Part shown: piece after piece, positions 4,237 through 49,364 of the stretch
Position numbering within the stretch: the first letter of the stretch is position 1
How the letters are laid out: each line of letters begins with the position of its first letter
Assembly (NCBI RefSeq): GCF_000027125.1
Contig: NC_017626.1
Strand: one strand, 5' to 3'
Length of the DNA: 64,000 nucleotides
Source of the DNA: Escherichia coli 042
GTDB lineage: Bacteria > Pseudomonadota > Gammaproteobacteria > Enterobacterales > Enterobacteriaceae
Notes under the pieces: model-generated
Databases searched by the model: none
Told to the model about the DNA's origin: nothing
What the model saw: the letters and a program-made list of their open reading frames with translations, nothing else
Program-made: the position numbers and the translations under genes

Positions 4237-5778
4237 ATGCGTCTGGAAGTCTTTTGTGAAGACCGACTCGGTCTGACCCGCGAATTACTCGATCTACTCG
4301 TGCTAAGAGGCATTGATTTACGCGGTATTGAGATTGACCCCATTGGGCGAATCTACCTCAATTTTGCTGAACTGGAGTTTGAGAGTTTCAGCAGTCTGAT
4401 GGCCGAAATACGCCGTATTGCAGGTGTTACCGATGTGCGTACTGTCCCGTGGATGCCTTCTGAACGTGAGCATCTGGCGTTGAGCGCGTTACTGGAAGCG
4501 TTGCCTGAACCTGTGCTCTCTGTCGATATGAAAAGCAAAGTGGATATGGCGAACCCGGCGAGCTGTCAGCTTTTTGGGCAAAAATTGGATCGCCTGCGCA
4601 ACCATACCGCCGCACAATTGATTAACGGCTTTAATTTTTTACGCTGGCTGGAAAGCGAACCGCAGGATTCCCATAACGAGCATGTCGTTATTAATGGACA
4701 GAATTTCCTGATGGAGATTACGCCTGTTTATCTTCAGGATGAAAATGATCAACACGTCCTGACCGGTGCGGTGGTGATGCTGCGATCAACGATTCGTATG
4801 GGCCGTCAGTTGCAAAATGTCGCCGCCCAGGACGTCAGCGCCTTTAGTCAAATTGTCGCCGTCAGCCCGAAAATGAAGCATGTTGTCGAACAGGCGCAGA
4901 AACTGGCGATGCTAAGCGCGCCGCTGCTGATAACCGGTGATACCGGCACCGGAAAAGATCTCTTTGCGTATGCCTGTCATCAGGCAAGCCCACGCGCGGG
5001 CAAACCCTATCTGGCGCTGAACTGTGCTTCTATCCCGGAAGATGCGGTCGAGAGTGAATTGTTTGGTCATGCCCCGGAAGGGAAGAAAGGGTTCTTTGAG
5101 CAGGCGAACGGTGGTTCGGTACTGCTGGATGAAATAGGTGAGATGTCACCACGGATGCAGGCGAAATTACTGCGTTTCCTTAATGATGGCACTTTCCGTC
5201 GGGTTGGCGAAGACCATGAGGTGCATGTCGATGTGCGGGTGATTTGCGCTACGCAGAAGAATCTTGTCGAACTGGTGCAAAAAGGCGTGTTCCGTGAAGA
5301 TCTCTATTATCGTCTGAACGTGTTGACGCTCAATCTGCCGCCGCTACGTGACTGTCCGCAGGACATCATGCCGTTAACCGAGCTGTTCGTCGCCCGCTTT
5401 GCCGACGAGCAGGGCGTGCCGCGTCCGAAACTGGCCGCTGACCTGAATACTGTACTTACGCGTTATGCGTGGCCGGGAAATGTGCGGCAGTTAAAGAACG
5501 CTATTTATCGCGCACTGACACAACTGGACGGTTATGAGCTGCGTCCACAGGATATTTTGTTACCGGATTATGACGCCGCAACGGTAGCCGTGGGCGAAGA
5601 TGCGATGGAAGGTTCGCTGGACGAAATCACCAGCCGTTTTGAACGCTCGGTATTAACCCAGCTTTATCGCAATTATCCCAGCACGCGCAAACTGGCAAAA
5701 CGCCTGGGCGTTTCGCATACCGCGATTGCCAATAAGTTGCGGGAATATGGTCTGAGTCAGAAGAAGAACGAAGAGTAA
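4237..5778 (+). CDS. tyrR: Transcriptional regulator TyrR (sigma54-type AAA+ domain, C-terminal HTH)
   Basis: ATG at 4237 gives MRLEVFCEDRLGLTRELLDLL..., 513 aa; GDTGTGK Walker A, GAFTGA-like region. Confidence 0.9.
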   Translation: MRLEVFCEDRLGLTRELLDLLVLRGIDLRGIEIDPIGRIYLNFAELEFESFSSLMAEIRRIAGVTDVRTVPWMPSEREHLALSALLEALPEPVLSVDMKSKVDMANPASCQLFGQKLDRLRNHTAAQLINGFNFLRWLESEPQDSHNEHVVINGQNFLMEITPVYLQDENDQHVLTGAVVMLRSTIRMGRQLQNVAAQDVSAFSQIVAVSPKMKHVVEQAQKLAMLSAPLLITGDTGTGKDLFAYACHQASPRAGKPYLALNCASIPEDAVESELFGHAPEGKKGFFEQANGGSVLLDEIGEMSPRMQAKLLRFLNDGTFRRVGEDHEVHVDVRVICATQKNLVELVQKGVFREDLYYRLNVLTLNLPPLRDCPQDIMPLTELFVARFADEQGVPRPKLAADLNTVLTRYAWPGNVRQLKNAIYRALTQLDGYELRPQDILLPDYDAATVAVGEDAMEGSLDEITSRFERSVLTQLYRNYPSTRKLAKRLGVSHTAIANKLREYGLSQKKNEE

Positions 5779-42334: not shown

Positions 42335-43021
42335 ATGACCCCAATAAAAATATTTATGACTATTGCTGATTTCAAACGGCCTAAATTGGAGCTCCCAAAC
42401 GGGGCAAACAAACTACTACTGCACTCTTGCTGTGCTCCATGTTCCGGTGAAGTGATGGAGGCGCTTCAGGCCTCGGGAATCGACTATACCATCTTTTTCT
42501 ACAACCCGAACATTCATCCTCAGAAAGAGTATTTAATTCGTAAGGATGAGAATATTCGCTTTGCTGAACAACACGGCGTGCCATTTATTGATGCTGATTA
42601 CGACACAGACAACTGGTTTGAACGTGCCAAAGGAATGGAATGGGAGCCCGAGAGGGGGATCCGTTGTACCATGTGTTTTGACATGCGTTTTGAGCGGACA
42701 GCGCTGTACGCTGCTGAAAATGGTTTCAGTGTGATCAGCAGTTCACTGGGCATTTCACGCTGGAAAAATATGCAGCAGGTTAACGACTGTGGGCGGCGAG
42801 CCGTCGCGCATTATCCGGGCATGGTGTACTGGGATTATAACTGGCGCAAGCAGGGCGGCTCGTCCCGCATGATTGAAATCAGCAAGCGCGAAAAATTCTA
42901 TCAGCAGGAATATTGTGGCTGTGTGTATTCTCTGCGCGATACCAATCTACACCGCAAATCTCAGGGACGCCCTCTTATCAAAATTGGTCAACTCCACTAC
43001 GGTAAAGAAGAGAAGGAGTGA
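42335..43021 (+). CDS. DUF208 / epoxyqueuosine reductase QueH-like protein (putative Fe-S enzyme)
   Basis: 228 aa with Cys motifs [14 protein letters not shown] and EYCGCVYS, as remembered for the QueH family. Confidence 0.55.
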
Positions 43022-43258
43022 TTTTATGGAGCACCTTTCTTATTGATTTCATATTGGCGAGGTAGCGGGAGTTAAGTAAAATTGCTGCGGGTGCTTGAGG
43101 CTATCTGCCTCAGGCATGAACACCAAAAGGCAGATAGAGAAAAGCCCCAGTTAACATTACGCGTCCTGCAAGACGCTTAACATTAATCTGAGGCTCAATC
43201 TATGCTGAACACATGTAGGTTAGCCTCTTACGTGCCGAAAGGCAAGGAGAAGCAGGCT

Positions 43259-43414
43259 ATGAAGCAGCAAAAGGCGATGTTAATCGCCCTGATCGTCATC
43301 TGTTTAACCGTCATAGTGACGGCACTGGTAACGAGGAAAGACCTCTGCGAGGTACGAATCCGAACCGGGCAGACGGAGGTCGCTGTCTTCACAGCTTACG
43401 AACCTGAGGAGTAA
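43259..43414 (+). CDS. hokD: Hok-family membrane toxin (type I toxin)
   Basis: 51 aa MKQQKAMLIALIVICLTVIVTALVTRKDLCEVRIRTGQTEVAVFTAYEPEE matches remembered HokD/RelF; in-frame upstream extension from 43202. Confidence 0.8.
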   Translation: MKQQKAMLIALIVICLTVIVTALVTRKDLCEVRIRTGQTEVAVFTAYEPEE

Positions 43415-43880: not shown

Positions 43881-44480
43881 ATGGCGCATATACAACTGGT
43901 CAAACAAACTTCTTCTGGTTTACTTCTCCCGGCGACGCCGGAGAGTTGCGATTTTCTGCATCAAATCAAAATAGGTGAGTGGATACACGCAGACTTTAAG
44001 CGTGTGCGTAACTACGCATTCCACAAGCGTTTTTTCAAACTCCTGCAACTGGGATTCGATTACTGGACTCCGGTCGGTGGGGCGATCACACCTCGCGAAC
44101 GAGAAATGGTGTTCGGCTTCGTTGATTACCTGTGTGAATCAGTAGGCAGGGAACATACGCCAGCTCTGAGTGATGCCGCGGAACAATATCTGAATACCGT
44201 TGCGACACGCAGAACCCGGGATATGGCATTGCTCAAATCATTTGACGCTTTCCGCGAGTGGGTAACCATTCAGGCCGGATTTTACACCGAGCATTTTTAT
44301 CCTGATGGTAGTCGTGGGCGTCGGGCGAAATCCATCGCGTTTGCGAATATGGACGAAACCGAGTTTCAGCAGGTTTATAAATCTGTACTGAATGTGCTGT
44401 GGAACTGGATTCTGTTCCGTAAATTTTCCTCTCCGGAACAAGTCGAAAATGTGGCCGCGCAGCTACTGGAGTTTGCGTAA
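43881..44480 (+). CDS. Hypothetical nin-region phage protein
   Basis: 199 aa, immediately upstream of YbcO-like gene with stop/start overlap. Confidence 0.5.
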   Translation: MAHIQLVKQTSSGLLLPATPESCDFLHQIKIGEWIHADFKRVRNYAFHKRFFKLLQLGFDYWTPVGGAITPREREMVFGFVDYLCESVGREHTPALSDAAEQYLNTVATRRTRDMALLKSFDAFREWVTIQAGFYTEHFYPDGSRGRRAKSIAFANMDETEFQQVYKSVLNVLWNWILFRKFSSPEQVENVAAQLLEFA

Positions 44481-44770
44481 TGGTGGATTTACGTAAAGCG
44501 GCGCGGGGCCAGATGTGCCAGGTCAGAATCCCTGGCTACTGCAATCACAATCCCGAAACTTCTGTGCTGGCGCATTACAGGTTGGCAGGGACGTGCGGAA
44601 CAGCGACAAAACCACACGATATGCAGGCAGCGATTGCCTGTAACTCATGCCACGATTTAATCGACGGGCGGGTAAAAACCAGCGATTACACCAAAGAAGA
44701 ATTACGCCTGATGCATGCAGAAGGTGTTTTTCGCACGCAAGAAATCTGGAGAAAGGAAGGTTATTTATGA
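44480..44770 (+). CDS. YbcO-like protein (DUF1364, Cys-rich putative nuclease)
   Basis: 96 aa MVDLRKAARGQMCQVRIPGYCNHNPETSVLAHYRLAGTCGT...IACNSCHDLIDGR, close to remembered DLP12 YbcO. Confidence 0.75.
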   Translation: MVDLRKAARGQMCQVRIPGYCNHNPETSVLAHYRLAGTCGTATKPHDMQAAIACNSCHDLIDGRVKTSDYTKEELRLMHAEGVFRTQEIWRKEGYL

Positions 44771-45303
44771 TTTACCCAACAAATACAGGCAAAAGCGGGG
44801 AACACCTTCGTCTCACCACGCTGGAAAGTGTCTGGATTCAGGGAAAACTGCGCATGTGGGGGCGCTGGTCGTATATTGGCGGCGGTAAGACGGGGAATAT
44901 GTTTAACCAGTTGCTGGCGTCAAAAAAATTGACGAAAACAGCCATCAATGAAGCCCTGCGCAGAATGAAAAAAGCGGGAATAGAGAAAGCTGAGCTGGAA
45001 GCGTTTTTGCGAGAGATGATCAACGGCAAGCAAAAGAGCTGGCTGGCGCATTGTACTGATGCAGAGGCACTAAAAATTGATAGTGTTATAGGTGAAGTTC
45101 TGGCGGATCATCCAGGACTACTAAATGTCCTGAGTCAGCGTTATGTGGGGCGAGGGATGAGTAAGAGAAGGATGGCCGAGTTATTAAACGAACAGTACCC
45201 AGAGTGGGCGTTGATTACATGCCGACGTCGTGTTGATCAGTGGTTGCGTGTTGCTGAGTTCATTTTGTATTCACCTATGAGAGAAGCGTTCGATTATGCT
45301 TAA
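44767..45303 (+). CDS. Putative late-gene antiterminator Q
   Basis: 178 aa; last nin-region gene, directly upstream of terminator hairpin, tRNAs and lysis cassette; family assignment from memory only. Confidence 0.5.
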   Translation: MIYPTNTGKSGEHLRLTTLESVWIQGKLRMWGRWSYIGGGKTGNMFNQLLASKKLTKTAINEALRRMKKAGIEKAELEAFLREMINGKQKSWLAHCTDAEALKIDSVIGEVLADHPGLLNVLSQRYVGRGMSKRRMAELLNEQYPEWALITCRRRVDQWLRVAEFILYSPMREAFDYA

Positions 45304-45397
45304 AAAATCATTGCAAAATGAGCCACAAACTGCTTCAATTTCGGTACGCTTCGCATAGCTGTATCGCGAGGCAAATTAAGCGCATGAACTTTAATAC

Positions 45398-45425
45398 AAC
45401 CCGCCATTGAGCGGGTTTTGTTGTT
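45398..45425 (+). terminator. Rho-independent terminator downstream of Q (candidate tR')
   Basis: ACCCGC-CATTGA-GCGGGT hairpin followed by TTTGTTGTTT. Confidence 0.45.
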
Positions 45426-45665
45426 TCTGTGGCGTGATATCAGAAACGACATTTAATAATCGCCTTCAAAATAAATTTGTTTATACATTGTCATGTATAT
45501 TTTAAGTGAAAGTGAATTATTCACATAAAATAAAAACACATAAATAAATTTACATAACTTGACGCAAAGTGTTGTTGCGATTGGAATATTAAATCGTATC
45601 ATCGAAAACGGTTCTGAGGGGGAACTCTTCTTTGCTCGGTGATATCGCTCCCCTGAAGAACCAAT

Positions 45666-45741
<76 letters not shown>

Positions 45742-45744
45742 TAT

Positions 45745-45819
<75 letters not shown>

Positions 45820-46182
45820 GCATTTGAAACAAGCCTTATTGTATTGCGGCACTGGCGTATTTTTTTATTACGTGGGAGCAGGTTGTTTTGAAAAAGCATT
45901 CTGTTCTCTGGCTATGATTTGAGGCCGGGTGTAGCCTCAGTGCTGATTTTTTACGGCAGCAGAATGGTGCATTATCGGTGGAGATTTTGTATTTCCTGGC
46001 AGGGTCGGTGATGCATCATTCTGGTGTTGTAAAAGCACCGCAGAGGCGTTCCTCAGGGCGAGGGTGGTTTAAAGAGTCGGTTTAGCGGGAAACCACAGTA
46101 TCCATACGGCACGGAATACTTCGGGAGGCACCCGACGCCTCGGTTTTATAACAATTAAATAATTCATCCCTTAATTGACCAA

Positions 46183-46207
46183 CCGCCGTATCAGGCGGTT
46201 TTTTTTA
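46183..46207 (+). terminator. Rho-independent terminator in the tRNA-holin spacer
   Basis: CCGCC-GTATCA-GGCGG hairpin followed by T9. Confidence 0.5.
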
Positions 46208-46595
46208 TTCCTTTCTCAGGACAAAAAAATACACGAGCATCCAGGAATACTCGTGGGACAACGTCCTTTGGATAGCAATTTGCGAGAGGGTGAAAAGTAG
46301 CGCGGTCGTCGGATTAAGACCGCGGGACAAAGTCCATGAAGAAGAATAAGTATCGGTCTCCTTCCGGAGACGAGTTGATATTACTAAGCTTTAAAAATGG
46401 TTTAAATCCTCAGATCAACCTTAATTTCAGATAAGGTTTATTTCATTTTCTCCGCGTCACATCCGACGCACATCACATCAGATAACACCACACAAAAGGC
46501 ATCTGCGGGTGTCTTTGACGGGGTGTTTTTTACGGGCCGCTGGTGGCCATTTTTTGTTTCCATTACACAGCGCCCGCATCTGCGAGGTGGGGGTT

Positions 46596-46811
46596 ATGAA
46601 ATCCATGGATAAGTTAACAACGGGTGTCGCCTATGGCACCTCCGCAGGCAGTGCTGGCTACTGGTTTTTACAGCTGCTCGATAAAGTCACGCCCTCACAG
46701 TGGGCAGCAATAGGTGTGCTGGGTAGCTTGGTATTTGGCCTGCTGACGTACCTGACAAACCTTTATTTCAAGATTAAAGAAGATAAGCGCAAGGCTGCGA
46801 GAGGTGAATAA
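46596..46811 (+). CDS. S: Class II pinholin (phage 21 S21-like) with dual-start motif
   Basis: 71 aa [71 protein letters not shown]; Met1/Met4 dual start; two TM domains. Confidence 0.85.
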
Positions 46812-47308
46812 TGCCTCCATCATTACGAAAAGCCGTTGCTGCTGCTATTGGTGGCGGAGCAATTGCTATAGCATCAGTGTTAATCACTGGCCCAAGTGGT
46901 AACGATGGTCTGGAAGGTGTCAGCTACATACCATACAAAGATATTGTTGGTGTATGGACTGTATGTCACGGGCATACAGGAAAAGACATCATGCTCGGTA
47001 AAACGTATACCAAAGCAGAATGCAAAGCCCTCCTGAATAAAGACCTTGCCACGGTCGCCAGACAAATTAACCCGTACATAAAAGTTGATATACCGGAAAC
47101 AACGCGCGGCGCTCTTTACTCGTTCGTTTACAACGTGGGCGCTGGCAATTTCAGAACATCGACGCTTCTTCGCAAAATAAACCAGGGCGATATCAAAGGC
47201 GCATGTGATCAGCTACGTCGCTGGACATATGCTGGCGGTAAGCAATGGAAAGGTCTCATGACTCGTCGTGAGATTGAGCGTGAAATCTGTTTGTGGGGTC
47301 AGCAATGA
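46811..47308 (+). CDS. R: SAR (signal-anchor-release) endolysin, lysozyme family (R21-like)
   Basis: 165 aa; Gly/Ala-rich N-terminal SAR domain ([20 protein letters not shown]) then lysozyme-like domain; TAATG overlap with holin. Confidence 0.85.
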
Positions 47309-47769
47309 ACAGAGTAACCGCGATTATCTCCGCTCTGGTTATCTGCATCATCGTCTGCCTGTCATGGGCTGTTAATCATTACCGTGATAATGCCATTACC
47401 TACAAAGCGCAACGCGATAATGTGAAGGAAAAACTCAACCAGGCGACCGCAATCATTACTGACATGCAGATACGCCAGCGTGATGTTGCTGCACTCGATG
47501 CAAAATACCTGAAGGAGTTAGCTGATGCGAAAGCTGAAAATGATGCTCTGCGTGATGATGTTGCCGCTGGTCGTCGTCGGTTGCACATCAAAGCAGTCTG
47601 TCCGTCCGTGCGTGAAGCCACCATCGCCTCCAGCGTGGATAATGCAGTCTCCCCCAGACTGGCAGACACCGCTGAACGGGATTATTTCACCCTCCGGGAA
47701 CGACTGGTAATGATGCAGGCCCAACTTGAAGGTGCTCAGCAATACATAACCGAACAGTGTTTAAAGTAA
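47305..47769 (+). CDS. Rz: Spanin inner-membrane subunit (Rz-like)
   Basis: 154 aa from [21 protein letters not shown]..., N-terminal TM plus coiled-coil; ATGA overlap with endolysin. Confidence 0.75.
47525..47710 (+). CDS. Rz1: Spanin outer-membrane lipoprotein subunit (Rz1-like), embedded in Rz in another frame
   Basis: 61 aa, signal peptide with lipobox VVGC, proline-rich mature region. Confidence 0.65.
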
Positions 47770-47906
47770 AATCTTAACTACAATATGATTCATTTTGATG
47801 ATTGTTTCATAAGGAACAGTGAAGTAAGATCTAAGATGAGTTAAATTTTATACAGTATAATCATAATGTTGCAGCAAGGTGGTTATAATTGAAAGAATAT
47901 TTAGAT

Positions 47907-49364
47907 ATGAATACATCTCATGTAAGAGTTGTTACTCATATGTGTGGGTTCCTGGTTTGGCTCTATAGTCTTTCAATGTTGCCACCAATGGTTGTAGCAT
48001 TGTTTTATAAAGAAAAAAGCCTGTTCGTTTTCTTTATAACTTTCGTTATATTTTTTTGCATTGGTGGCGGAGCGTGGTATACAACTAAGAAATCTGGTAT
48101 TCAATTACGTACCCGTGATGGGTTTATTATAATTGTAATGTTTTGGATTTTGTTTTCTGTTATTAGTGCATTCCCTTTATGGATTGACTCAGAACTTAAT
48201 TTAACGTTTATTGATGCTCTATTTGAAGGGGTTTCTGGAATAACAACAACAGGAGCAACTGTAATTGATGATGTTAGTTCATTACCTCGGGCATATTTGT
48301 ACTATCGGTCACAGTTAAATTTTATAGGTGGCTTAGGAGTTATTGTTCTGGCGGTTGCTGTATTGCCATTATTGGGTATTGGTGGTGCAAAGCTTTATCA
48401 GTCAGAAATGCCAGGGCCATTTAAGGATGACAAACTTACTCCCCGCCTGGCCGATACGTCACGGACACTTTGGATAACTTATTCTTTATTAGGTATTGCT
48501 TGTATTGTCTGTTATAGACTTGCAGGAATGCCTTTGTTTGATGCTATTTGTCACGGGATATCCACAGTTTCGCTTGGTGGTTTCTCAACTCATAGCGAGA
48601 GTATCGGATATTTTAATAACTATTTGGTTGAGCTGGTGGCTGGTTCTTTTTCCCTGCTATCGGCTTTCAACTTCACCCTTTGGTATATTGTTATTAGCAG
48701 GAAAACGTTAAAACCTTTAATCAGAGATATTGAACTTCGTTTCTTTCTGTTAATAGCCTTAGGGGTGATCATTGTTACCTCTTTCCAGGTCTGGCATATA
48801 GGTATGTATGACTTGCCTGGAAGTTTTATTCATTCGTTTTTTCTTGCCAGCTCCATGCTCACTGATAATGGTTTAGCTACGCAGGATTACGCAAACTGGC
48901 CCACGCACACGATAGTGTTTTTGCTGTTGTCAAGTTTCTTTGGGGGATGTATAGGTTCAACTTGTGGTGGAATTAAGTCACTTCGATTTCTTATACTTTT
49001 CAAACAAAGCAAACACGAGATAAACCAGCTTTCTCATCCCAGAGCGTTGTTGAGTGTAAATGTAGGAGGGAAGATAGTTACAGATCGTGTAATGAGGTCT
49101 GTATGGAGTTTCTTTTTTCTTTATACTCTCTTCACGGTGTTTTTTATACTGGTGTTAAATGGTATGGGATATGATTTTCTTACATCATTTGCAACAGTGG
49201 CTGCATGTATTAATAATATGGGATTAGGTTTTGGGGCTACTGCATCGTCATTCGGAGTGCTTAATGACATTGCAAAATATTTAATGTGCATAGCTATGAT
49301 TCTTGGTCGCCTTGAAATTTATCCTGTTATTATATTGTTTTCAGGTTTTTTTTGGCGCTCCTAA
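47907..49364 (+). CDS. trkG: Potassium uptake protein TrkG (TrkH family), prophage moron
   Basis: 485 aa from MNTSHVRVVTHMCGFLVWLYSL...; visibly AT-rich relative to flanks. Confidence 0.9.
   Translation: MNTSHVRVVTHMCGFLVWLYSLSMLPPMVVALFYKEKSLFVFFITFVIFFCIGGGAWYTTKKSGIQLRTRDGFIIIVMFWILFSVISAFPLWIDSELNLTFIDALFEGVSGITTTGATVIDDVSSLPRAYLYYRSQLNFIGGLGVIVLAVAVLPLLGIGGAKLYQSEMPGPFKDDKLTPRLADTSRTLWITYSLLGIACIVCYRLAGMPLFDAICHGISTVSLGGFSTHSESIGYFNNYLVELVAGSFSLLSAFNFTLWYIVISRKTLKPLIRDIELRFFLLIALGVIIVTSFQVWHIGMYDLPGSFIHSFFLASSMLTDNGLATQDYANWPTHTIVFLLLSSFFGGCIGSTCGGIKSLRFLILFKQSKHEINQLSHPRALLSVNVGGKIVTDRVMRSVWSFFFLYTLFTVFFILVLNGMGYDFLTSFATVAACINNMGLGFGATASSFGVLNDIAKYLMCIAMILGRLEIYPVIILFSGFFWRS

Follow-up and report, generated by a model that had tools for sequence, protein, structure and literature searches.

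A conserved, mosaic non-coding spacer with candidate RNA elements between the tRNA genes and the lysis cassette of a Rac-like Escherichia coli prophage

We analysed the 776 bases at positions 45820-46595 of a 64,000-nucleotide (nt) stretch of Escherichia coli 042 DNA (NCBI RefSeq assembly GCF_000027125.1, contig NC_017626.1), referred to here as the window. By its sequence, the surrounding region is a Rac-like lambdoid prophage of E. coli resembling that of strain APEC O1, with which it shares 99.9% identity. The prophage genes run in the order NinB-like, HNH/DUF1364, Q-like, tRNA-Thr(TGT), tRNA-Gly(TCC), spacer, S21-type holin, signal-arrest-release (SAR)-type endolysin, Rz and trkG; in RefSeq-style names, the lysis block 3' of the spacer reads essD-rrrD-Rz-trkG. 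Because Rfam matched RalA, sok, FnrS and McaS elsewhere in the window, we place the prophage at the Rac locus. The Q-like antiterminator gene (44767-45303) matched phrog_753, 'anti-termination protein Q-like' (E = 4e-78). The tRNA-Thr (45666-45741) and tRNA-Gly (45745-45819) genes, both on the plus strand, were found by ARAGORN and by the Rfam tRNA model (73.8 and 65.6 bits, respectively). The first gene of the lysis cassette, the S21-like class II holin gene essD (46596-46811, plus strand), matched phrog_9876 and the holin family phrog_20 and carries this name in RefSeq. The spacer between the tRNAs and the holin is conserved, mosaic and functional non-coding DNA, whose features lie at the RNA level and are not genes for proteins.

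The spacer was matched in 424 of 5426 complete E. coli genomes, always on the chromosome and almost never annotated. Near-full-length matches accounted for 210 of the 424, at 78-100% identity. Among deposited phages, only vB_EcoS-683R6 and the LT-IIb enterotoxin phage SerU-LTIIb contained most of its length. When 68 unique homologs drawn from genomes and IMG/VR contigs were compared, recombination breakpoints fell at 46033, 46210, ~46293 and ~46451, so the spacer is a string of modules. In phage SerU-LTIIb, the module of tRNA-Gly, spacer and holin is duplicated in tandem (relative L002, 1201-2032 and 3107-3744; relatives are given by such labels below), and the second copy is without module 3, a unit on the minus strand.

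The 3' trailer of the tRNAs contains a conserved hairpin of 84 nt and 32 base pairs (bp) at 45950-46033 on the plus strand. It is built from a 28-bp lower helix, a conserved internal loop on the 3' side, UGGCAGGG, and a 4-bp apical helix; the loop was kept even in variants in which the apical part was replaced. The segment 45935-46040 folded at -48.2 kcal/mol (z = -6.1) on the plus strand compared to -26.9 kcal/mol on the minus strand. Across 31 distinct variants, 98.0% of 992 pair cells were standard pairs, and the same measurement in slid controls gave 33-59%. Double, compensatory changes were present at 7 of the 32 pairs, a number that none of 500 shuffles reached. G.U pairs filled 222 of the 992 cells and turn into C.A on the minus strand, where pairing was only 76%. 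In the window copy, every mismatch is likewise a G.U on the plus strand only. This asymmetry indicates that the hairpin is a plus-strand RNA element. The earlier note on this DNA, made from the sequence alone, had proposed that the spacer might hold a structured RNA; this covarying hairpin and the convergent minus-strand unit described below bear that proposal out.

It could also be argued that the 84-bp inverted repeat works at the DNA level, as a site for protein binding or recombination. Both of its arms are near-invariant beyond the demands of base pairing (~95% conserved where the flanks fall below 60%), and the module boundary at 46033 is the end of the repeat. A DNA site, however, would leave the plus-strand restriction of the G.U cells and the drop in pairing from 98% to 76% on the other strand unaccounted for, as well as the seven compensated pairs and the fixed position and orientation within a transcribed tRNA trailer, and we consider this explanation improbable. 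We believe that the hairpin most likely acts in RNA, as a processing or stability element of a double-strand-specific, RNase III type. RNase III is our preferred guess because of the 32-bp duplex; its 28 + 4 bp provide the at least ~20 bp of near-continuous duplex of an RNase III substrate. RNase III processing hairpins are found in phage transcripts, among them lambda sib, the N-leader sites and the intercistronic sites of T7. Like these, the element in the window is a near-perfect duplex that exceeds two helical turns and has an internal loop, placed between functional units of a phage polycistronic transcript. Unlike them, its arms and its UGGCAGGG loop are strictly conserved, for which there is no known RNase III requirement, and its cleavage is a prediction.

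The hairpin was present in 395 of the 5426 E. coli genomes and lies about 105 nt after tRNA-Gly. In a pattern search, with distances taken to the start of the pattern, 133 of 144 matches lay 120-147 nt after tRNA-Gly, and most of the remaining 11 were unrelated chance matches. A search of GTDB with one genome per species matched no enterobacterial representative, so that at this stringency the hairpin looks confined to E. coli (pro)phages; the three matches that it did return, in Clostridiales, Prevotella and Cyclobacteriaceae, were taken as chance. Antitermination by the hairpin, in the manner of the put sites of HK022, was rejected on logical grounds: transcripts of a constitutive promoter would then leak through the downstream terminator, and lysogens would make the holin; the shape of the element, one long helix and not two short stem-loops, speaks against it as well. 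Rfam microRNA matches were artefacts of a long hairpin. A search for complementarity of the hairpin, the minus-strand RNA or the holin leader to the rest of the 64-kb window gave nothing beyond chance.

The second conserved structure is a unit on the minus strand, which has four hairpins and is probably a small RNA (sRNA) gene built like an Hfq-type sRNA. Its candidate promoter (46378-46406, minus strand), recognised by footprint conservation, has a -35 hexamer TTTAAA (46406-46401), a 17-nt spacer and a -10 hexamer TAATAT (46383-46378). No phage haplotype had lost the hexamers or their spacing (the -10 reading TAATAT or TAGTAT), whereas the sequence of the promoter spacer varied. The candidate sRNA (46223-46371, minus strand) folded over 150 nt at -46.5 kcal/mol (z = -4.9) and would comprise a 5' hairpin (46371-46356), a CU-rich single-stranded stretch, CUUAUUCUUCUUCAU (46350-46336), hairpin m (46335-46325, GGAC-UUU-GUCC) and hairpin b (46324-46301, 7 bp) with a U-rich tail. 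Allele B carries U7 after hairpin b, which makes a short (~80 nt) and a long (~150 nt) form plausible, the latter by read-through to 46255-46232. The long form would end at an intrinsic terminator at 46223-46255 on the minus strand (z = -4.7, 0 of 200 shuffles), which converges with the strong plus-strand terminator of the tRNA trailer, here called T2; the ends of the two U tracts are 16 nt apart. A second allele of this terminator (L004 type) has a different stem and is still a hairpin with a U run on the minus strand, with two compensatory pairs. The core of the module was near-invariant across alleles with differing flanks. Among 18 distinct sequences, 96.3% of 537 cells over 30 pairs were paired (slid controls, 34-47%), 6 pairs showed double changes, and pairing on the opposite, plus strand was 91.1%.

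A paralog of the minus-strand unit was found in the core genome, in the serU-yodB intergenic region of 5351 of the 5426 E. coli genomes, including K-12 (plus strand; L173 1492-1600, corresponding to MG1655 NC_000913.3 ~2,043,088-2,043,180), where RefSeq leaves it unannotated. It shares ~70% identity with the phage unit over ~157 nt and keeps the promoter hexamers (TTTAAA-17-TATGAT) and hairpins m and b followed by a U tail, UUCCUUUUUU; the single-stranded stretch differs. A literature search for an sRNA between serU and yodB returned nothing relevant. From its sequence, the paralog may be an undescribed, phage-derived core sRNA.

The spacer was said in the earlier note to hold no open reading frame (ORF) of 60 amino acids (aa) or more, and this is correct: the longest complete ORF in any frame within 45820-46595 is 41-42 aa, and the only longer frame is that of the holin with an upstream GTG at 46509. 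Stop codons were enriched in all frames. When the 776 bases were shuffled 2000 times with dinucleotides preserved, the longest ORF had a median of 81 aa, and 11% of the shuffles lacked any ORF of at least 60 aa; a longest ORF of 42 aa or less occurred in only 0.25%. Since so few shuffles are equally poor, the scarcity of ORFs is real and beyond chance.

The 32-aa ORF that had been pointed out at 46336-46434 (plus strand) does exist in the ORF list, and from the comparison of its variants we judge that it is not a gene. A real small protein there, possibly controlled by an antisense RNA in the manner of a type I toxin-antitoxin system, would fit with the frame being open in 20 of 26 unique variants, which start with ATG or GTG and share one stop codon, and with the candidate minus-strand RNA being perfectly antisense to the entire start of the ORF. 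However, the frame is replaced in one variant (L029) and shifted in five, each time by a 1-nt deletion in a hairpin loop that leaves the RNA hairpin in place. The differences between haplotypes are mostly non-synonymous (K3N, R7W, S8P, E13M, L14F and others), the ORF had no PHROG match, and its ATG is ATA in the core-genome paralog, which retains the RNA features. The start codon abuts the hairpin GGAC-AAA-GUCC, and the only Shine-Dalgarno-like bases, GGGA, are buried inside that hairpin. No hydrophobic segment was found in the ORF, and a type I toxin-antitoxin system was rejected on this ground together with the frameshifts and the lost start. We give the small-protein explanation very little credence.

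Over 45200-46900, seven terminator-like sites were found compared to 1.8 +/- 1.5 in shuffles. The tRNA operon ends at T2, a strong intrinsic terminator at 46181-46206 on the plus strand (stem 46181-46200 followed by a run of eight T, -12.5 kcal/mol, z = -3.8). Hairpins with a U tract that were stabler than their shuffles were found at T2, at the minus-strand terminator and at 45398-45427. The earlier note had listed two terminator-like hairpins; the one at 46183-46207 is T2, and the other, at 46123-46150, did not hold up. The latter corresponds to T1, a terminator-scan match on the plus strand at 46125-46150 (hairpin 46125-46141) with an GGUUUUAU tail; it is weak (z = -0.46), with 59 of 200 shuffles folding equally well, and we rejected it as a terminator. 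Likewise, a hairpin with a T run at 45919-45940 picked up by the terminator scan was rejected as a conserved element, as its pairing is lost in L001-type relatives.

T1 overlaps a 13-nt motif, CGGGAGGCACCCG, that the trailer has in common with the STnc100 sRNA of prophage Sp5 of the Sakai strain and, in part, with PasD2. In a 411-nt Rfam search, the top match of the distal trailer (46016-46208, plus strand) was STnc100 (RF02076), over its full length, with 17.5 bits and E = 0.12. The corresponding segments of relatives scored 18-27 bits, again over the full length on the plus strand and ending at T2, while true members score 94-208 bits. The internal CCGGGAGGCACCCGG hairpin of STnc100 is shortened to CGGG/CCCG in the window, and position and length (~170-206 nt) fit. 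To judge from these resemblances, the distal trailer is a possible distant relative of STnc100. By eye, no internal promoter for a separate STnc100-like RNA was seen in the trailer. At gathering thresholds and at E <=1, the genuine Rfam matches in the region were the two tRNAs only. Matches to 'Plastid-ycf2 5'UTR' (26-36 bits) on the minus strand of 45666-45819 are reverse complements of the tRNAs, a database artefact that recurs at the tRNA genes of every relative.

In all nine contexts examined, a T2-type CCGCC/GGCGG stem with a run of 6-9 U was present, with eight different loops, 74-175 nt after the 84-nt hairpin. From the presence of this terminator in every context, we conclude that the promoter moves as one cassette with the leader, the two tRNAs, the hairpin and T2. 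As far as PMC4104026 quotes it, the moron definition of Juhala et al. 2000 fits the tRNA-hairpin-T2 cassette.

The footprint of conservation suggests that this tRNA operon has a promoter of its own. A sigma-70 promoter at 45575-45602 (plus strand) was found by promoter scan, with -35 TTGCGA, a 16-nt spacer and -10 TATCAT. Relatives keep TTGnnn at -35 and TATCAT, TAATAT or TATTAT at -10 with 16-17 nt spacing. The -10 element sits 7-8 nt before a leader hairpin, also in relatives that carry a DNA methyltransferase gene instead of Q and in which the sequence around the promoter is unrelated. This 5' leader hairpin of the tRNA precursor (45610-45662, plus strand) folded at -20.4 kcal/mol (z = -2.5), and the base of its stem shows a compensatory change from T-A to C-G in relatives L012, L024 and L028. 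Because promoter and leader are kept despite unrelated upstream sequence, the tRNAs appear to be a self-contained transcription unit. Some relatives have extra tRNAs (Ile, Arg) in place of the leader hairpin.

Just outside the spacer, directly after the Q-like gene, we assign a candidate late promoter PR' to 45311-45339 (plus strand; -35 TTGCAA, 17-nt spacer, -10 TTCAAT). The TTG of its -35 and its -10 TTCAAT keep the 17-nt spacing in relatives with different intervening sequence. At the position of tR', the terminator scan found the intrinsic terminator at 45398-45427 (plus strand, -13.6 kcal/mol, z = -4.1), which relatives also keep. In the lysogen, this PR'-tR' pair would yield an RNA of ~80 nt. 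The lambda 6S RNA and StxS of Shiga toxin (Stx) phages are such short PR'-tR' transcripts (review PMC7873438). The window resembles them in the candidate promoter and terminator right after the Q-like gene (45311-45427), and differs from them in that there is no sequence relation, with no Q-binding or pause element identified in this segment.

The 3' end of the spacer is formed by the pre-holin leader module (46451-46562, plus strand), with a hairpin at 46495-46516 nested in one at 46484-46527 and another at 46535-46548 followed by T6; a weak terminator-like site was found there at 46535-46555. The module is common to two unrelated holin types at 82-93% identity, lies directly after the stop codon of a DUF3927 gene in relatives, and had a fold z of -2.1 for the plus strand and -1.6 for the minus strand. 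It is read most economically as a moron terminator combined with the 5' leader of the holin gene. With an A run on one side and a T run on the other, its first palindrome could terminate transcription on both strands. A 6-bp indel (GATGCC) at 46495-46516 toggles this palindrome between two perfect stems, GGCATC-TGCG-GATGCC and AAAGGCATC-TGCG-GGTGTCTTT.

Relatives carry cargo between T2 and the pre-holin leader: TerB with DUF3927 (L016, L017 and L107), IraM (L017), a 180-aa hypothetical protein (L105) or the insertion sequence (IS) IS66 (L109). As TerB/DUF3927, IraM or IS elements are found there, we regard the spacer as a moron site. The corresponding slot of Sakai Sp5 holds stx2AB, and the earlier statement that Stx phages carry their toxin genes at this position, between the tRNAs and the lysis cassette, therefore holds. 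In L017 (strain 08-00022), TerB-DUF3927 comes after the tRNA-hairpin-T2 cassette, and behind it lies a genuine STnc100 (4987-5162, 93.7 bits), which adjoins a reverse-oriented iraM; one prophage can accordingly hold both the trailer and a true STnc100.

The relatives' cargo raises the question whether the spacer is the eroded remnant of a toxin gene or of another moron gene, as the earlier note had suggested. Besides stx2AB in Sp5 and TerB/DUF3927 or IraM in close relatives, the annotation of some genomes speaks for it: the RefSeq Prokaryotic Genome Annotation Pipeline (PGAP) and the submitter of one GenBank phage record call 'hypothetical proteins' of 100-130 aa across the spacer (L010 718-1116; L014 752-1108; L015 719-1030; L001 3190-3507 and 3615-3740, both on the minus strand). 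These coding sequences, however, start with GTG or TTG, differ in frame and strand and run straight through T2, and are probably artefacts. Searching the window with tblastn for TerB, DUF3927, IraM, the 180-aa hypothetical protein and others gave nothing below E = 0.1, the longest ORF is shorter than in 99.75% of shuffles, stops are enriched in all frames, and the sequence is under structural RNA constraint. The remnant-cargo suggestion thus found no footing, and we regard decayed cargo as extremely unlikely.

What the spacer does hold can be compared with known RNAs of this site. Convergent sRNA pairs lie 3' of PR' at the moron site of prophages of enterohaemorrhagic E. coli (EHEC) (Tree et al. 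2014, PMC4104026; review PMC7873438): STnc100/EcOnc27 and AsxR behind stx2AB in Sp5, and AgvB in Sp10 and Sp17 (PMC4104026). In Sakai Sp5, we confirmed the order Q, three tRNAs, stx2AB, STnc100 (plus strand, 208 bits) and AsxR (minus strand, 88 bits), the ends of the two sRNAs lying 1 nt apart behind stx2B. The window shares with Sp5 the slot 3' of Q/PR' and the phage tRNAs and 5' of the lysis genes. It also shares a sense and an antisense unit with facing intrinsic terminators, 16 nt apart here compared to 1 nt in Sp5, and a sense member with the weak full-length STnc100 match and CGGGAGGCACCCG. In contrast to Sp5, the STnc100 match falls far short of the gathering score, the sense RNA forms the end of a tRNA operon with no cargo gene before it, and the antisense RNA is predicted at ~80-150 nt rather than 51-60 nt. 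AsxR and AgvB (RF02703 and RF02702; 51-60 nt with a conserved 3' region of ~42 nt) had no match in the window at E <=1 over 44000-48000, nor even at E <=10 in the 411-nt search of 45990-46400.

The antisense unit also resembles in position the PasA and PasC sRNAs of prophages of enteropathogenic E. coli (EPEC) (Pearl Mizrahi et al. 2021, PMC8550237; Zhu, Shabalina and Storz 2026, preprint), which are backed by Northern blots and RNA interaction by ligation and sequencing (RIL-seq) (PMC8550237). Both are antisense sRNAs a few hundred nt before the holin, starting 214 nt (PasA) and, for the candidate in the window, 225 nt upstream, and the two successive terminators predicted in the window recall the two forms of PasA (major 85 nt, minor 236 nt). 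Unlike PasA and PasC, the candidate is known from sequence prediction only, and there is no sequence similarity: PasA, PasC and PasD2 from E2348/69 gave only chance matches to the window (blastn, word size 7). By sequence and covariance model, the antisense unit of the window is distinct from AsxR, AgvB, PasA and PasC.

The trailer, lying between the end of tRNA-Gly (45819) and T2, occupies the position of an RNA derived from a tRNA 3' external transcribed spacer (3'ETS). The 3'ETS of the glyW-cysT-leuZ operon, 3'ETS-leuZ, is short and serves as a sponge for RyhB and RybB, a finding reportedly due to Lalaouna et al. 2015. Like 3'ETS-leuZ, the trailer of the window is an RNA segment that follows the last tRNA and stops at the operon's intrinsic terminator, and its conservation exceeds the needs of termination; unlike it, the trailer is ~390 nt long and dominated by the 32-bp hairpin. 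An RNA of this kind is one route by which a tRNA trailer can gain its own function. Lalaouna et al. 2015 is cited in review PMC7873438.

Taken together, we think it likely that the spacer is a cargo-free moron slot of the Rac-like prophage, made up of the tail of a tRNA operon, a minus-strand unit and a holin leader. Conservation, covariation, strand asymmetry, modular mosaicism and the relatives' cargo are what we observed, and from them we infer start sites, RNase III cleavage, Hfq dependence and Q read-through as follows. In the lysogen, the tRNA promoter at 45575-45602 would be active and give a precursor of ~600 nt ending at T2. The 84-nt hairpin would act as a processing or stability element for this precursor and for late read-through transcripts, and the distal trailer (46016-46208) may persist as a stable, STnc100-like 3' fragment. 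The minus-strand unit (start at ~46371, ends at ~46291 and ~46223) would make an sRNA converging on T2, and the last 110 nt would be a terminator-studded holin leader. After induction, Q-modified polymerase from ~45311-45339 would get to the holin, endolysin and spanin genes only by passing tR', T2 and the leader hairpins. The idea that the spacer is controlled by Q antitermination would then be right in part: Q read-through is presumably one input, and it is not the sole control, the tRNA operon and the minus-strand unit having promoter footprints of their own.

Several points weigh against this model. Every RNA end and promoter in it is a prediction. The minus-strand promoter scores 8/12 by consensus, below the threshold of the promoter scan, which did not list it; two or three haplotypes account for most of the covariation in the minus-strand unit, and the unit's number of pairs with a change on both sides was not above that of shuffles (285 of 500). 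Neither the trailer of the window nor its relatives reached the STnc100 gathering score of 47 bits. For the Q-like protein family (DUF1133/phrog_753), we found no experimental study. The invariance of both hairpin arms exceeds the needs of pairing and may reflect a sequence-specific partner or a DNA-level role.

A weak promoter, covariation from few haplotypes and the lack of any Rfam family reaching threshold are also what would be expected of a plain leader, that is, a passive, terminator-rich non-coding leader with no discrete functional sRNA, in which the minus-strand terminator blocks antisense transcription from the lysis region and the hairpin is a stabilising 3' structure of the tRNA precursor. 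Against such a leader, the core paralog keeps promoter hexamers, hairpins and U tail at ~70% identity in 5351 of 5426 genomes, the core of the minus-strand module is invariant across alleles with different flanks, and the hairpin is ~95% conserved where its flanks are below 60%. Proven Hfq-bound sRNAs, moreover, lie at the corresponding position in EHEC and EPEC prophages. We therefore rate the plain leader as unlikely, and favour the slot with its tRNA operon tail, minus-strand unit and holin leader.

In its organisation, the spacer is the known RNA hub of the lambdoid moron site; its members, the tRNA-linked hairpin, the candidate sRNA and the possible distant relative of STnc100, are unannotated. 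In lambdoid phages, the slot from Q to lysis carries Shiga toxin and other virulence cargo, and in EHEC and EPEC, abundant Hfq-bound sRNAs that rewire host regulation. The prophage here is a non-toxigenic, Rac-like one, widespread in extraintestinal and commensal E. coli as well as in laboratory-derived strains (APEC O1, W/LY180, ATCC 8739), and its RNA architecture matches. The moron-site RNA principle would thus extend beyond pathogen phages, with different and unannotated members, and coordinates are now at hand for a covarying hairpin tied to tRNAs, a candidate sRNA and its candidate K-12 core paralog. The recurrent spurious 'hypothetical protein' calls over the spacer in RefSeq and phage records are flagged by the same comparison. 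More tentatively, and as a possibility to which we lend limited confidence, the hairpin element of the tRNA-Thr/Gly cassette and the phage sRNA family with its domesticated serU copy may be two undescribed RNA families. If so, the hairpin with its invariant arms and UGGCAGGG loop would be a dedicated cis-acting element and more than a generic RNase III site; it might, for instance, be recognised by a factor with sequence specificity, through which the maturation of the tRNAs or the stability of the trailer would depend on the lysogenic or lytic state. The phage and serU copies of the sRNA would then combine conserved 3' hairpins with differing single-stranded 'seeds', as in the AgvB/AsxR anti-sRNAs.

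Upstream of this region, the prophage also carries a gene for QueH epoxyqueuosine reductase, a tRNA-modification enzyme, at 42335-43021, ~2.6 kb before the prophage tRNA genes. It is followed by a hok/sok locus at 43089-43414.

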